Shown: piece after piece, positions 10 through 10,287 of the stretch | How the letters are laid out: each line of letters begins with the position of its first letter | How positions within the stretch are numbered: the stretch's first letter is position 1 | Source of the DNA: a virus | Strand: one strand, 5' to 3' | Virus genome (UHGV): UHGV-0111509 | Length of the DNA stretch: 11,508 bases | Made by a program: the position numbers and the translations under genes | Notes under the pieces: generated by a model | What the model was told of the DNA's origin: nothing | The model's database searches: none | What the model saw: the letters and a program-made list of their open reading frames with translations, nothing else

Positions 10-29
10 TTGTGTACATTTGTACACAA
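10..29. promoter_or_regulatory. Perfect 9-bp inverted repeat TTGTGTACA-tt-TGTACACAA immediately upstream of the TetR-family gene; candidate operator for autoregulation
   Basis: Read directly: positions 10-18 and 21-29 are exact reverse complements separated by 2 nt. The location just 5' of the regulator start is typical of TetR-family operators (inference). Confidence 0.4.
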
Positions 30-49
30 TTGCAGAGAGAGGAAATGAC

Positions 50-586
50 ATGCGTCGCGCTAACGATCCGCAACGGCGAGAAAAAATTATCCAGGCCACG
101 CTGGAGGCGGTGAAACTTTACGGAATACATGCTGTTACGCACCGCAAAATTGCTACCCTTGCCGGGGTACCGTTGGGATCGATGACCTACTATTTTTCAG
201 GAATTGATGAGTTGTTACTGGAGGCGTTCAGCAGTTTTACTGAGATCATGTCCCGGCAATATCAGGCATTTTTTAGCGATGTTAGTGATGCTCCGGGCGC
301 ATGCCAGGCTATCACCGATATGATCTACAGCTCACAGGTTGCAACGCCGGATAACATGGAGCTGATGTACCAGCTCTACGCGCTGGCTAGCCGAAAACCG
401 CTATTAAAAACGGTAATGCAAAACTGGATGCAGCGCAGTCAGCAAACGCTCGAACAATGGTTTGAACCCGGAACCGCCCGCGCGCTTGATGCGTTTATTG
501 AGGGGATGACGCTGCATTTTGTCATCGACCGTAAGCCGCTATCGCGCGAGGAGATTTTGAGGATGGTTGAGAGGGTTGCAGGGTAG
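50..586 (+). CDS. TetR/AcrR-family transcriptional regulator, probably a host gene flanking the prophage
   Basis: The ORF track gives 20..586, but codon 20-22 is TTG. The first ATG is at 50, preceded by a GAGAGAGGA RBS-like stretch. The N-terminal region ([48 protein letters not shown]) has the spacing and residues of a TetR HTH signature. GC looks higher than the AT-rich islands. Confidence 0.8.
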
Positions 587-736: not shown

Positions 737-1006
737 TTACCTTAGACGCCAGGGGCCTCTATCTTCAATCTGTTCGACTAACCCCTCCTCTTCTAGTTCA
801 CGCAATAGTGCAACAACCCAATATTGTTGGTTCGAACTTGTTGCTTTCCGTTTTTCTCCCCAATCGAGGCCGCTTAGACGAAATACCTCAGCTTGCTTAA
901 CGCCGTTGCCGTTTTTTTGGGCATCTGGGTGAGTTTTAAGTACGGATAAAGCCAATTCTTTGGCTCTGTTGCGCAATTCCGCTCCCTGATGCTGAAACTT
1001 ATTCAT
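737..1006 (-). CDS. Hypothetical small protein (89 aa) encoded just downstream of int on the same strand; possible winged-helix-like DNA-binding protein
   Basis: ATG at 1006-1004 preceded by GGAG at 8-nt spacing (complement of 1015-1018). It lies 58 bp downstream of the int stop, so is likely co-transcribed. The C-terminal segment (QQYWVVALLRELEEEGLVEQIEDRGPWRLR) resembles a winged-helix recognition helix plus wing, but I do not recognise the family. Confidence 0.55.
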   Translation of the reverse strand: MNKFQHQGAELRNRAKELALSVLKTHPDAQKNGNGVKQAEVFRLSGLDWGEKRKATSSNQQYWVVALLRELEEEGLVEQIEDRGPWRLR

Positions 1007-2793: not shown

Positions 2794-3843
2794 CTATAGC
2801 CACCTAGAAATTATTGATGTTAACTTGGAAAAAATTTTAGCATAATCTTCACGTTCTGGAATAATAATATTTCCTTCATCCTTTAATTCTGTGAATGCAG
2901 AATACGCCTCTTGAGCAGCTCTTTCCAAATCAGAACTAAGTTGTGGCCTTGATGCTTTTAGAGTAAAACTATCATTATTCCCTGATAGCCTTGCTCCGTG
3001 TTCATCTTTACCACTTATAATTACTTTAGAGTTGGCCATTTGGGTTGCACTTGTTGTTTTTTGAATGACGGCCTCAGAATTTAGACCATCTTCATTTTTA
3101 TTTGTGTATACTAATTGAGCTTTACTACTATTAAGTTCTTCTTTTTCTTGTTCAATTTTTCTCCAGAAGCCATCAAGAGATATATTTTCACTATTTGTTG
3201 GCAATAACTCAATTGATAATCTATTCACAACAGAAAAGAGTTCAACAAAATTGCTCAATGATCTTGGGTCTGTTAAGGGGGTAACCCGTAATTTTGGGGC
3301 TCCTAGTTTACGATAAATATCTTTTTTATATAGTCGATCAATGTATGATTTTTTCTTTCTAATTCTTTTATTTTTTTTTACTTCGTAATCCACAAAAGAA
3401 TTATATCGCTTTGCAAGGCAATACTTGCTAGTATTTTCAAATTCTTCTAGGGTAGGGGCTCCAGAAACCTCTTTACAAAGCATTAATCTGTGCTCATTAA
3501 GCATAAGGATAAAAATAGAGCTGGGGTGACTTTCTAGCGTCCTGTGATCTCGAATTAATTGACCATCTTGAAATATTTGATCTCGTTTAAATATGGTCTT
3601 TTTAATAATACGCCCACACAATGCAATTGTTGGAACTATAGGACCAATAAAATCTGAATCTGTAGTATCTAACGTAATTATTTTTGTGTCAGTAAAGAAA
3701 TATTCTGTATCTTTAAATTTTCTAACGTATTTTTGTGCGAAAAATGAAGGAAAAACAATGCAGTCAAAGGCATCTAAGAGAACTTTGTCCTCTCCAAAAT
3801 TTAAGGTATAGTTTGCAAATTCAATAGTTTTCGTAAAGCTCAT
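2794..3843 (-). CDS. Hypothetical cytoplasmic protein (349 aa) with no motif I recognise; middle gene of the repressor-linked operon; candidate sensor/effector partner of the membrane protein
   Basis: Long uninterrupted ORF in an AT-rich region. Its ATG (3843-3841) lies 2 nt after the TAA stop of the repressor gene (3848-3846), indicating translational coupling. It has a lysine-rich basic patch (KKNKRIRKKKSYIDRLYKK). No Walker A or nuclease signature was seen. Confidence 0.7.
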   Translation of the reverse strand: MSFTKTIEFANYTLNFGEDKVLLDAFDCIVFPSFFAQKYVRKFKDTEYFFTDTKIITLDTTDSDFIGPIVPTIALCGRIIKKTIFKRDQIFQDGQLIRDHRTLESHPSSIFILMLNEHRLMLCKEVSGAPTLEEFENTSKYCLAKRYNSFVDYEVKKNKRIRKKKSYIDRLYKKDIYRKLGAPKLRVTPLTDPRSLSNFVELFSVVNRLSIELLPTNSENISLDGFWRKIEQEKEELNSSKAQLVYTNKNEDGLNSEAVIQKTTSATQMANSKVIISGKDEHGARLSGNNDSFTLKASRPQLSSDLERAAQEAYSAFTELKDEGNIIIPEREDYAKIFSKLTSIISRWL

Positions 3844-3845
3844 TG

Positions 3846-4787
3846 TTAAACCCTTTTTCTAATTATTCCTTTAACTTTATTATTAAATTCCAAATCTTCT
3901 TTGTCGCATTCAAAGCTATATTTTGTGTTTTCAACGCGGATGCGATTGTTTGGAAGTTTAAATATATCTCTAAAAGTAAATTCTCCGTTAATAGATACTA
4001 ACCATAGACCATCGCTAAGATACTCCTCTTTGCTAATGATGTATGAATCATTTGCGGAATTAACTATATAGGGATGTTTTAAATTTTGAGGTAAAATTTC
4101 GCTCGAAACGATTAATTCTCTTTGATCAGTAAGTTTGCCGTCACGTAGATCATAGCAGTCTAATGTAAGCAACCCACTTAGCTTTGTTTGATTGGAACGC
4201 CCCTTACCAAAAGATAACCACTCGAGAGACACTCCTGTTTCTAAACAGCATTGGATGATCCAGTCTGCAGGAAAAATGTCTCGCATGTATCGTGTAGCTA
4301 ACGTGCTTTTTGAGATACCAAGGTGATCGGCTAAGGCTTGGCGCGTTTTGTAACCGTAAGCCTCAACAATTCGCTCTATTGCTGCTTTACCCCCTCGAGT
4401 GAAATCCATGTGGTTTTCATTATCGAACTTTATAGTGGGGGTGTGAACTTCATTGCAAAATTCATCTCCAGACTGTTTTTCAGCATGCCATTCTGGCGAA
4501 GGAGATGGCATTCCTTCTTCGGCATCTAAACCAAATGCTAGCCATTCGATTGATGCACCAGTTTCCATTGAACATATAACAACCCAATCAGCAGGGAAGG
4601 TATCGCGTGCATATCTGTTAGCCATTGTACTTTGTGAAATACCAAGGTGGTTACAGAATGCTTGGCGTGATTTGAAACCATAGGCCATGAGTATTCTCTC
4701 AATGACTTTTTGCCCTCCTCGATTCTGCATGACCATGGCTTTCAGATGATCTTCAATATGGCGAAATGTGATTTTATTAGTTGACAT
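3846..4787 (-). CDS. CI-type phage immunity repressor candidate with a tandemly duplicated 186-CI-like HTH domain plus a C-terminal domain (313 aa)
   Basis: Two about 64-aa segments (residues about 23-86 and 130-193) are roughly 60% identical to each other: RGGQKVIERILMAYGFKSRQAFCNHLGISQSTMANRYARDTFPADWVVICSMETGASIEWLAFG versus RGGKAAIERIVEAYGYKTRQALADHLGISKSTLATRYMRDIFPADWIIQCCLETGVSLEWLSFG. Both resemble the phage-186-type CI repressor HTH domain (from memory). The gene is divergent from the apl/cox-like gene, which is the canonical repressor position. Confidence 0.8.
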   Translation of the reverse strand: MSTNKITFRHIEDHLKAMVMQNRGGQKVIERILMAYGFKSRQAFCNHLGISQSTMANRYARDTFPADWVVICSMETGASIEWLAFGLDAEEGMPSPSPEWHAEKQSGDEFCNEVHTPTIKFDNENHMDFTRGGKAAIERIVEAYGYKTRQALADHLGISKSTLATRYMRDIFPADWIIQCCLETGVSLEWLSFGKGRSNQTKLSGLLTLDCYDLRDGKLTDQRELIVSSEILPQNLKHPYIVNSANDSYIISKEEYLSDGLWLVSINGEFTFRDIFKLPNNRIRVENTKYSFECDKEDLEFNNKVKGIIRKRV

Positions 4788-4875
4788 ATTCTTTATGCGA
4801 ACCTATTCTCCGTTTTGTGAAGTTTTCGTCACGATTAATACCGGCTCACCACAAGCCAATAGGAGATGTTGCATC
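4788..4875. promoter_or_regulatory. Divergent switch region between the repressor operon and the apl/cox-cII operon; expected to hold face-to-face lysogenic and lytic promoters and operators
   Basis: An 88-bp intergenic spacer between divergent starts 4787 (-) and 4876 (+). Contains a TTGTGA -35-like hexamer (4815-4820) and a GTTTTG/GTTTTC direct repeat. Exact promoter hexamers could not be assigned confidently. Confidence 0.4.
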
Positions 4876-5097
4876 ATGACCCCTAACATTTCAATAACTC
4901 TGAATACGCCGCACGTCACAATTGAGCGTTATAGCGAACTTACTGGTCTTTCTATCGACACAATCAACGATATGCTGGCTGATGGTCGCATCCCTCGTCA
5001 TCGCCTTCGGAAAGACAAGAAAAGAGAAAAGGTAATGATCAACCTTGCTGCTCTTACCGTTGATGCACTTACTGATTGCAATGTTGTATTCAACTAG
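4876..5097 (+). CDS. Apl/Cox-like excisionase and transcriptional regulator (small HTH protein, 73 aa)
   Basis: ATG at 4876 preceded by AGGAG (4861-4865). HTH-like segment [27 protein letters not shown]. First gene divergent from the repressor, which is the apl (186) / cox (P2) position. The upstream in-frame extension to 4768 is rejected. Confidence 0.7.
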
Positions 5098-5129
5098 TTC
5101 CATTTTGGGATACATCAGGAGTGTCGACT

Positions 5130-5639
5130 ATGTTTGATTACCAAGTTTCCAAACATCCACATTTTGATGAAGCCTGTCGTACATTCGCGCTGCGCCACAA
5201 CCTGGTGCAACTGGCAGAACGTGCTGGCATGAATGTGCAGATTCTGCGTAACAAGCTGAACCCAGCTCAACCTCATTTATTAACCGCACCAGAAATCTGG
5301 CTGCTTACCGATCTGACTGAAGATTCAACGCTGGTAGATGGTTTTCTGGCTCAGATTCACTGCCTGCCATGCGTACCGATTAATGAGGTGGCAAAAGAGA
5401 AACTGCCACATTACGTCATGAGTGCAACCGCAGAGATCGGGCGTGTTGCTGCAGGTGCGGTATCTGGCGATGTAAAAACCAGTGCAGGTCGTCGTGATGC
5501 TATCAGCAGCATTAACTCTGTAACACGACTGATGGCGCTGGCGGCTGTTTCATTGCAGGCCCGTTTACAGGCTAATCCTGCGATGGCGAGTGCAGTTGAT
5601 ACCGTGACTGGCCTCGGTGCTTCATTCGGTTTGCTGTGA
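5130..5639 (+). CDS. cII: Phage 186 CII-like lysogeny-establishment transcriptional activator (169 aa)
   Basis: ATG at 5130 with AGGAG RBS at 5117-5121. The 169-aa length and the position immediately after apl match phage 186 CII as I remember it. HTH-like region [19 protein letters not shown]. Needs BLASTP confirmation. Confidence 0.75.
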
Positions 5640-10037: not shown

Positions 10038-10057
10038 TACTGTAAATATAAACAGTG
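10038..10057. promoter_or_regulatory. LexA operator (SOS box) taCTGTaaatataaACAGtg in a promoter-like AT-rich region upstream of the 62-aa ORF
   Basis: Read directly: CTGT (10040-10043), 8 A/T-only nucleotides, ACAG (10052-10055). This matches the LexA consensus CTGT-N8-ACAG with an AT-rich spacer. Possible -35 TTTACA (10015-10020) and -10 TATACT (10036-10041) overlap it. Confidence 0.7.
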
Positions 10058-10098: not shown

Positions 10099-10287
10099 AT
10101 GCAGGACTATTTTTTGGAGTCTTTGAAGCTCCAGCGCATTGATTTTTTTCTTAAGCTTGTAGCGGCTAGTGAGTGTAGTGATGAAGAGAAGGGGCTAGCT
10201 CTGCAGTGGGTTTCTGAATTGACTGATGAGTTGATGGCGAAAATTCGAAGCCATGAATACAGTAGGTCGATGGATGTAATCAGTTGA
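10099..10287 (+). CDS. Hypothetical 62-aa protein under putative LexA control; candidate Tum-like SOS-inducible antirepressor
   Basis: ATG at 10099 with TAGGAGGA RBS at 10088-10095. The LexA box is about 45 bp upstream and a terminator follows. The longer ORF-track start (9997) would run through the promoter and LexA box and is rejected. The functional call is by analogy to 186 tum. Confidence 0.5.
   Translation: MQDYFLESLKLQRIDFFLKLVAASECSDEEKGLALQWVSELTDELMAKIRSHEYSRSMDVIS

Follow-up and report, generated by a model that had tools for sequence, protein, structure and literature searches.

A 186-type CI immunity repressor with two helix-turn-helix domains and a mosaic origin in an Escherichia coli prophage

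The DNA analyzed here, viral genome UHGV-0111509 (11,508 nucleotides; the window), is a 186-like (Peduoviridae) prophage adjoining rcdA in E. coli, and the subject of the analysis is its cI gene, which encodes a protein of 313 residues. This protein serves as the immunity (CI) repressor of the prophage. Its form is conserved, two-headed and of mosaic origin: two helix-turn-helix (HTH) domains, HTH1 and HTH2, precede a single C-terminal domain. The architecture is, by sequence comparison, a mosaic in which the head of one immunity class is tethered to the complete repressor of another. Coordinates are collected in Table 1; single-HTH relatives are named below by the length class of their CI, and genes encoding both heads are called tandem.

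Pfam assigns two stretches of the protein to PF07022 (Phage_CI_repr; E 3.4e-57 for the whole protein) and one to PF16452 (Phage_CI_C; E 1.3e-19), and PHROGs places it in ‘transcriptional repressor’ families. Residues 23–86 and 131–194 align without gaps over 64 residues with 41 identities (64%), and the local BLOSUM62 score of this internal repeat is 240, compared with 26 ± 4 (maximum 49) for 500 shuffled sequences. The corresponding DNA copies match at 125 of 192 nucleotides (65%), where shuffled DNA gives 68 ± 2.4 matches (maximum 77). Because the third codon positions of the two HTH copies are only 42% identical, the copies are considered old. In sequence searches residues 136–309 align to full-length phage 186 CI (2FJR; E 6e-29), with HTH2 falling on the N-terminal domain of that structure, and the C-terminal domain matches 2FKD both by sequence (E 3.6e-12) and by Foldseek (template modeling (TM) score 0.90, root mean square deviation 1.6 Å, 109 columns). 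An AlphaFold2 model of the monomer, calculated with 45 homologues in the alignment, contains two confident five-helix bundles (residues 25–85 and 133–193) and a beta-rich C-terminal domain (residues 206–310); residues 90–128 have predicted local distance difference test (pLDDT) scores below 50, and the predicted TM score (pTM) of the model is 0.38, without fixed packing of one head against the other.

The first-pass annotation of the window had taken the gene product to be a CI-type repressor in which two HTHs are accompanied by a separate C-terminal domain, and had pointed to the 186 CI domain families and an AlphaFold monomer as ways of checking it. The match of both repeats to PF07022 and of the C-terminus to PF16452, the two bundles and C-terminal domain of the model, and the correspondence with 2FJR and 2FKD confirm that description. 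The internal repeat is likewise as described, except that its second copy lies one residue beyond the 130–193 originally given, and the duplication at the DNA level is present with an offset of 324 base pairs (bp) rather than about 321 bp. Pfam finds no S24 peptidase domain (PF00717) in the 313-residue protein, and the resemblance of its C-terminal domain to LexA C-domains in Foldseek is a distant one of fold, at 12–15% identity. The two HTHs set the protein apart from 186-type CI, which has one per monomer. Nor is it a P2 C-type repressor, a single domain of about 99 residues that binds direct repeats, since it has 313 residues with PF07022 and PF16452; P2-type C and 186-type CI cannot be aligned with each other (PMC3448106).

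The two heads have their nearest relatives in different immunity classes. Residues 1–86, comprising an extension of about 20 residues and HTH1, match the N-terminus of P0053 (208 residues) at 83% identity; P0053 is a member of the 207-residue single-HTH class. Residues 127–313 are 61–65% identical to entire 187-residue single-HTH CIs, and the match starts exactly at the initiator of the latter (MDFNSGGK compared with M127-DFTRGGK). A neighbor-joining tree of the domains places HTH1 of most tandem proteins with the 207-residue singles and HTH2 with 186–189-residue singles. Across the tandem family the N-terminal part is always nearest to the 207–209-residue class, and the body formed by HTH2 and the C-terminal domain is nearest to different single-HTH classes in different tandem lineages. 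In locus L093, which belongs to the subgroup of the window, this body is 89% identical to the 189-residue CI P0080; HTH2 of the window itself is ∼75–80% identical to the nearest single-HTH heads. Because the two HTHs belong to different immunity classes, a mosaic or fusion is favored over local duplication, so that of the ‘tandem duplication’ proposed at first pass the two homologous HTHs stand, and their simple duplication in situ does not.

The canonical repressor position ascribed to the gene at first pass is borne out by the gene order. The leftward genes are an integrase gene (1065–2174), two unannotated open reading frames (ORFs; 2187–2792 and 2794–3843) and cI; rightward lie the apl-position gene, which occupies the same place as apl of phage 186, followed by cII, fil, DUF5347, DUF2732, a TraR-like gene, dam and a replication endonuclease gene. 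This order, in the window and in locus L001, matches that of the annotated phage 186 switch and of the complete Klebsiella phage 4LV2017. The 313-residue protein is 100% identical to WP_097499987.1, named ‘phage repressor protein CI’ in NZ_AP026961, and 97% identical to CI of 4LV2017. The annotation of the complete phage 4LV2017 lists no repressor besides the tandem CI.

The ratio of nonsynonymous to synonymous substitution rates (dN/dS), estimated among 12 diverged tandem genes, is 0.05 for HTH1, 0.08 for HTH2, 0.73 for the tether between them and 0.69 for the hinge that follows HTH2. Both heads are under strong purifying selection and the tether is nearly neutral. The tether is hypervariable in sequence, with 22% mean amino acid identity across tandem genes, and variable in length. 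The recognition helices are invariant or nearly so (SQSTMANRYAR in HTH1, SKSTLA[T/N]RY[M/L]R in HTH2), and the HTH1 recognition-helix residues S51, S53, T54, A56, R58 and R61 are nearly invariant. In the first 22 codons of cI (4722–4787) dS is 0.62, compared with 1.4–2.0 elsewhere in the gene, which suggests constraint at the DNA level and fits the overlap of the coding sequence there with the −35 element of the lytic promoter pR and an operator word at −20.

The spacer between cI and the apl-position gene is 88 bp. The pR-like promoter recognized there lies at the same position relative to cI as pR of phage 186 and is conserved across all tandem-group switch regions; codons 1–3 of cI are the antisense of its −35 hexamer (ATGTCAACT antisense of AGTTGACAT). 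For this reason the MSTxK N-terminus, considered as proof that 198-residue singles derive from tandem genes by deletion, is weakened as an argument, MST being the antisense of the pR −35. Words of the form TGTGA[A/T] recur at fixed positions −20, +9 and +29, in some loci also +47, in every class with an HTH1-type domain, that is, in tandem and 207-residue classes. Their frequency in these classes is 1.6–3.0 per locus, compared with a background of 0.07–0.09, and none occurs in 198-residue single-HTH phages with the same apl/cII backbone. The conserved block TCTCCGNNNTGTGAA at +20 is likewise found only in tandem and 207-residue classes. Between +1 and +50 the window shares 68% identity with the 207-residue class and 46–52% with the 187-residue class, and in the 4LV2017 genome (33.5 kb) the switch is the sole cluster of at least three TGTGA[A/T] words.

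The two single-HTH classes that resemble the two parts of the protein differ around pR. The 207–209-residue class (P0053 of Salmonella enterica diarizonae; loci L083–L086), whose extension and HTH1 are those 83% identical to the window's, shares block TCTCCGNNNTGTGAA and the words at −20, +9 and +29 with the window and has a fourth word at +47; its one HTH is joined directly to its own C-terminal domain, which is 38–44% identical to the C-terminal part in the window, and its apl and downstream genes differ from those of the window. The 187–189-residue class (P0037 of Kluyvera; P0035 and P0080 of E. coli; loci L037 and L147), colinear with residues 127–313 from Met1 to the end, carries TCCAAAAG repeats around pR, spaced by ∼20 bp. 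Neither the window nor L093 nor any part of the 4LV2017 genome contains these operator words of the HTH2-like class. No match to the 187-residue class words TCCAAAAG or ATTCCAAAAGCGATC lies near the switch, and the whole window has 6 matches at up to 4 mismatches where 3.3 are expected. No 186-type A or B palindrome and none of the FL/FR type was found in the window. The simplest reading of this pattern of operator words would be that HTH1 reads pR.

Several other readings of the switch DNA were considered and set aside. A hybrid operator TTCTC-N6-GTGAA, made of a 186 A-type and a B-type half-site, was dropped since the identical block occurs at +20 in single-HTH 207-class phages. A CRP site of the form TGTGA...TCAC does not fit, the spacing being a variable 7–10 nucleotides and not 6. 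The arms of the inverted repeat at the start region of pR (Table 1) are spaced by the same 7–10 nucleotides among relatives, and its right arm GTCACGATT is common to 198-class phages with the same apl type and so may be part of the backbone or of Apl sites. The element TAGTTCCATTTTGGGATA (5095–5112) was examined as an HTH2 site and rejected, being conserved in every class, the 207-residue class included, and lying at the pE position of phage 186. It overlaps the apl stop codon at the 186 FR/pE position, ahead of the conserved cII start ATGTTTGATTACCAAGTTTCCAAACATC; it is conserved in tandem, 198-residue and 207-residue classes and in part of the 187-residue class, and is probably part of a CII-dependent promoter and not an immunity-specific operator. 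Elsewhere, in 4LV2017 (L145), the region at ∼33035–33105 upstream of an ogr-like late activator gene contains inverted HTH1-type words, CTTCACAATGG ... TTATTGTGAATTT, about 50 bp apart. Phage 186 CI represses the promoter of its own late activator. By analogy, these words may be a second target of the two-headed repressor.

A candidate site for HTH2 is found in sister lineages. In the 198-residue singles, whose HTH matches HTH2 of many tandem proteins, pR is flanked by a palindrome with the 12-nucleotide core TCYCAWTTGGGR, which also forms the core of the central pR operator defined experimentally in phage 186 (TCTCAATTGGGA). The HTH2 recognition helix of the 198-like tandem proteins is identical to that of the 198-residue singles. 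Of the 13 tandem loci whose HTH2 is 198-like, 11 contain a single copy of the core, inside cI at −312 to −375; elsewhere there is 1 match in 143 kb. This places the core in the junction-coding DNA ahead of HTH2, approximately where the intragenic FL site lies in 186, and it persists while the junction peptide varies (SPIGN, SPIEI, YPNEI, NPNEN), which hints at selection on the DNA. An operator thus appears to lie inside the coding sequence of tandem cI genes with a 198-like HTH2. The tandem loci with the junction core are among L011–L027, L140 and L144; in the 198-residue class (L038–L081) a TCTCAATTGGGA-like core is present at −27 and +32 relative to the cI start, and the N-terminal codons for KYPNEIK contain it. 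At the position of the sister-lineage palindrome, the subgroup of the window has a conserved 16-mer, GTTTTCATTATCGAAC, kept in the window and in L006, L007, L093 and L139 within an otherwise hypervariable linker and containing a −10-like GATAAT on the cI strand.

The model proposed from these comparisons treats residues 127–313 as a complete 186-type CI body, in which HTH2 is joined to the C-terminal domain by a short hinge, and to whose N-terminus an extension of about 20 residues and HTH1, derived from another immunity class, are fused by a disordered tether of about 40 residues. On this flexible leash HTH1 would read the phage's own pR operators and so set immunity, and HTH2 with the C-terminal domain would provide oligomerization and a second DNA-reading head of different specificity. 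In the sister lineages the HTH2-type palindrome ∼310–375 bp away inside cI may allow a loop from pR to the intragenic site, held by both kinds of head. For the model as a whole, with HTH1 reading pR, the body of HTH2 and C-terminal domain oligomerizing and HTH2 supplying a second specificity, a probability of about 0.55 is given.

A number of observations weigh against this model. The operator assignments are all comparative. The coding DNA of HTH1 is contiguous with pR, and their joint inheritance could reflect linkage rather than function; the −20 word and the intragenic word of the 207-residue class lie in conserved KIT codons, where coding constraint is a confounding factor; and for the rarer HTH1 types in L026 and L027 the comparison of pR-region identity gives no clear separation. 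If the body has been replaced repeatedly from single-HTH phages, this could account for part of the low dN/dS of HTH2, and the junction palindrome could be retained ancestral sequence or the result of constraint on an N-terminal arm peptide. In the window's own subgroup, which has a different HTH2 helix (SKSTLATRYMR) and lacks the core TCYCAWTTGGGR, no HTH2-type site was found. Formation of a wheel cannot be assumed, given that N267 aligns with a position that is Lys in the dimer-limited 2FJR and Glu in the 14-mer 2FKD.

The first-pass annotation had pictured one monomer on an operator of two half-sites, HTH1 and HTH2 of a single chain lying on the two halves so that a monomer replaces the dimer. 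Two homologous heads do occur in one chain, engineered single-chain 434 and Cro repressors show feasibility (cited in PMC10096509), the monomeric repressor of a mycobacteriophage uses two domains on an asymmetric site (PMC9283540), and the pR block TTCTC-N6-GTGAA is readable as two unlike half-sites. However, the identical block is at the same position in single-HTH 207-class phages, so that block TCTCCGNNNTGTGAA and the TGTGA[A/T] words accompany HTH1 by itself, and because the tether is about 40 residues long, disordered and hypervariable, as well as variable in length, no fixed geometry of the two heads is expected, in keeping with the pTM of 0.38. With a full 186-type oligomerization domain retained and the HTH2-class word absent at pR, this arrangement is unsupported on comparative grounds and appears improbable. 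An assignment that gives the DNA-binding work to HTH2, as in 186, and makes HTH1 an accessory that does not read operators (serving, for instance, to decoy or dock an antirepressor or to modulate induction) draws on the colinearity of HTH2 and C-terminal domain with 186 CI, on a LexA box and small ORF at the 186/PSP3 antirepressor position, and on antirepressor control being the rule in the group (PMC3121763). It is nonetheless very unlikely, since it is the HTH1 type that the pR words track, with no words of the HTH2 class, since HTH1 has a dN/dS of 0.05 and a recognition helix that hardly varies, and since the 207-class phages, with their single HTH, manage with an HTH1-type head alone. Least credible of all is the suggestion, also made at first pass, that the protein is not the immunity repressor and instead regulates the downstream cargo. 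The two unannotated ORFs do lie behind cI in the same orientation, and the first of them (2794–3843) is also behind cI in 4LV2017. Nevertheless, tandem cI genes are followed by at least 10 different sets of ORFs, and cargo also follows cI genes with a single HTH; because the slot between cI and int thus holds variable cargo whether a phage has one HTH or two, a dedicated regulator is unsupported, and the full 186-type switch context together with a complete phage that has no other annotated repressor argues further against it.

The protein might confer immunity to two classes of 186-like phage, or cross-talk with co-resident prophages, if HTH1 acts on its own pR and HTH2 with the C-terminal domain recognizes operators of the class from which it came. 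Consistent with this, residues 127–313 correspond to a complete single-HTH CI; the L093 body is 89% identical to an extant 189-residue CI, with a single conservative difference between their recognition helices; 198-like tandem proteins have the same HTH2 helix as the 198-residue singles; two-HTH forms arose repeatedly; and HTH2 is strongly conserved though its cognate words are absent from the window and from the whole of 4LV2017. However, at ∼75–80% identity to the nearest single heads HTH2 of the window may differ from them in specificity, and in sister lineages HTH2 has a candidate site in its own genome, a reason for retention other than defense; double immunity is therefore rated as unlikely. 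The broader proposal, that the protein is a natural dual-specificity repressor whose HTH1 silences its own pR and whose HTH2 and C-terminal domain would bind operators of a second class, either the intragenic loop site or those of heteroimmune competitors, is offered tentatively, at well short of even odds. A further possibility is that an internal promoter and Met127 yield a 187-residue single-HTH CI beside the 313-residue form, mixed oligomers of the two tuning repression. Met127 aligns with Met1 of the 187-residue class, phage 186 itself has nested in-frame starts in tum, and ATG127 co-occurs with a promoter match of 9–10 out of 12 in four lineages of the subgroup and nowhere else. Those four lineages are related, however, and the co-occurrence is not independent; promoter-like sequences in the region are at chance (2 found, 2.2 expected), no Shine-Dalgarno sequence precedes Met127, and this residue is absent from most tandem lineages, all of which makes a second isoform quite doubtful.

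Table 1. Features of the cI gene and the switch region, in positions of the window.
Feature	Position	Strand	Basis and remarks
cI gene, immunity repressor with two HTH domains	3846–4787	−	313-residue ORF; Pfam 2× PF07022 + PF16452
N-terminal extension, residues 1–22, MSTNKITFRHIEDHLKAMVMQN	4722–4787	−	common to the 207-residue single-HTH class
HTH1, residues 23–86, recognition helix SQSTMANRYAR	4530–4721	−	PF07022; AlphaFold2 helices 25–85
Inter-HTH tether, residues 87–130, acidic/Pro/Ser-rich, predicted disordered	4398–4529	−	low pLDDT, hypervariable
HTH2, residues 131–194, recognition helix SKSTLATRYMR	4206–4397	−	best PF07022 stretch, 135–197
C-terminal oligomerization-type domain, residues 206–310, 186 CI fold	3858–4172	−	PF16452, 2FKD
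pR-like lytic promoter, TTGACA-17-TATTCT	4781–4809	+	promoter scan, 10/12 match; −35 overlaps cI start codon
Candidate HTH1-type words, one orientation	4767–4821	+	TGTGAT 4767–4772 (−20), TGCGAA 4796–4801 (+9, one mismatch), TGTGAA 4816–4821 (+29)
Conserved pR block, TCTCCGNNNTGTGAA / TCTCCGTTTTGTGAA	4807–4821	+	most conserved block, +20
Inverted repeat GTGAAG-TTTT-CGTCAC	4817–4832		pR start region; arm spacing 7–10 nucleotides among relatives
Subgroup-conserved 16-mer, GTTTTCATTATCGAAC	4413–4428		junction DNA before HTH2, position of sister-lineage palindrome
Possible internal promoter and start	4407–4447	−	TTCACA 4447–4442, 17-nucleotide spacer, GATAAT 4424–4419, 9 nucleotides, ATG of Met127 4409–4407
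apl-position gene, 73 residues	4876–5097	+	ORF with strong ribosome binding site, divergent from cI, no Pfam match
cII (Phage_CP76)	5130–5639	+	PF06892, E 5.7e-42

The two ORFs behind cI, both on the minus strand, encode a 349-residue protein (2794–3843) and a predicted membrane protein of 201 residues (2187–2792), neither of which has a match in Pfam or PADLOC. Homologues of the pair, at 41–47% identity, lie behind other tandem cI lineages (L023, L031–L034); the slot between cI and int is hypervariable among related loci, and one of its gene sets includes an ‘ATP-dependent nuclease’. The pair are candidates for defense or exclusion genes expressed in the lysogen. Directly past the replication gene, a perfect LexA box, CTGTAAATATAAACAG, is present at 10040–10055 and is followed by a strong ribosome binding site and an ORF of 62 residues (10099–10287, plus strand). 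The box and ORF are at the position of the LexA-controlled tum antirepressor gene of phage 186, and the split tum of Fels-2/PSP3 occupies this position as well (PMC3121763). No similarity of the 62-residue ORF to 186 Tum was detected, nor any match in Pfam or PADLOC, and the ORF is conserved at more than 95% identity in 46 phage records with different CI types. At the prophage end, between the host TetR-family gene rcdA (20–586, plus strand) and the integrase gene, an 89-residue ORF (737–1006, minus strand) has no family match and is a ‘hypothetical protein’ in NZ_AP026961.

The two-headed 186-type CI is a widespread, uncharacterized architecture. Two-HTH forms make up 49 of the best 120 protein clusters, and tandem CI is present in 41 of 5,426 E. 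coli genomes; alleles 98% identical to the protein studied here occur in 10 more complete E. coli genomes and related 312-residue alleles in 30 more. An exhaustive HMMER search with HTH1 against 1.84 billion representatives returned only 170 relatives, and ∼27 of the 147 representatives that were absent from the first search have two heads. In databases these proteins are named ‘phage repressor protein CI’ or ‘helix-turn-helix domain-containing protein’; a 2011 survey of 18 CI proteins of P2-like phages contained single-HTH forms only, and a literature search found no published description of a two-HTH 186-type CI. Other lineages with two PF07022 domains are P0191/P0273 (Shewanella algae), P0239 (metagenomic, with Peptidase_S24, PF00717), P0177 (Edwardsiella tarda) and P0252 (Desulfosarcina widdelii). 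Within a protein of the Shewanella or S24 lineage the heads are 66–71% identical to each other and at most 49% identical to those of any other lineage, which indicates that their two-headed forms are independent duplications. This independent recurrence in Shewanella-type and S24-type repressors suggests a general advantage.

The architecture bears on how immunity specificity is encoded and evolves, since repressor modules and operators appear to be shuffled together. It also prompts two questions: can a single repressor bind sites of two kinds within one complex, and can the immunity of a prophage be widened to cover competitor phages? If HTH2 and the C-terminal domain bind operators of heteroimmune competitors, a lysogen would get two immunities from one gene. 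If the dual-specificity reading holds, the shuffling of a cassette of HTH1 and pR operator onto different CI bodies would be a route to new specificities in P2/186-like phages. Such a protein could also supply synthetic biology with a ready-made scaffold for a two-specificity repressor.

Phage 186 CI is a textbook alternative to lambda CI, with one head per monomer and dimers that assemble into a 14-mer wheel around which DNA wraps and loops. The 313-residue protein shares PF07022, PF16452 and their folds with 186 CI (2FJR, 2FKD) and likewise has no S24 protease domain; the switch of the window resembles that of 186 in the placement of pR over the cI start, the divergent apl-cII-fil genes and int downstream, and a LexA-controlled small gene is present where tum sits. 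It differs from 186 CI in its two HTHs per chain, its additional N-terminal extension of about 20 residues and its disordered tether of about 40 residues. At pR it has TGTGA[A/T] words in one orientation in place of the A-type palindrome of 186; palindromes of the FL/FR type were not found in the window, and Asn occupies the residue aligned with the Glu/Lys of wheel and dimer. Two HTHs in one polypeptide are familiar from the engineered single-chain repressors 434 RR69 and single-chain lambda Cro, in which heterologous heads can give asymmetric specificity. Those proteins are functional analogues and not relatives; they are artificial, with short designed linkers, no oligomerization domain and one operator per chain, whereas the repressor described here has a long disordered tether and a full oligomerization domain. 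Among natural repressors, that of the cluster A mycobacteriophage TipsytheTRex has two independent DNA-binding domains in one chain (PMC9283540). It belongs to an unrelated family, is monomeric and combines two different folds on a single asymmetric site, whereas the CI of this prophage carries two homologous HTHs on an oligomerizing 186-type body.

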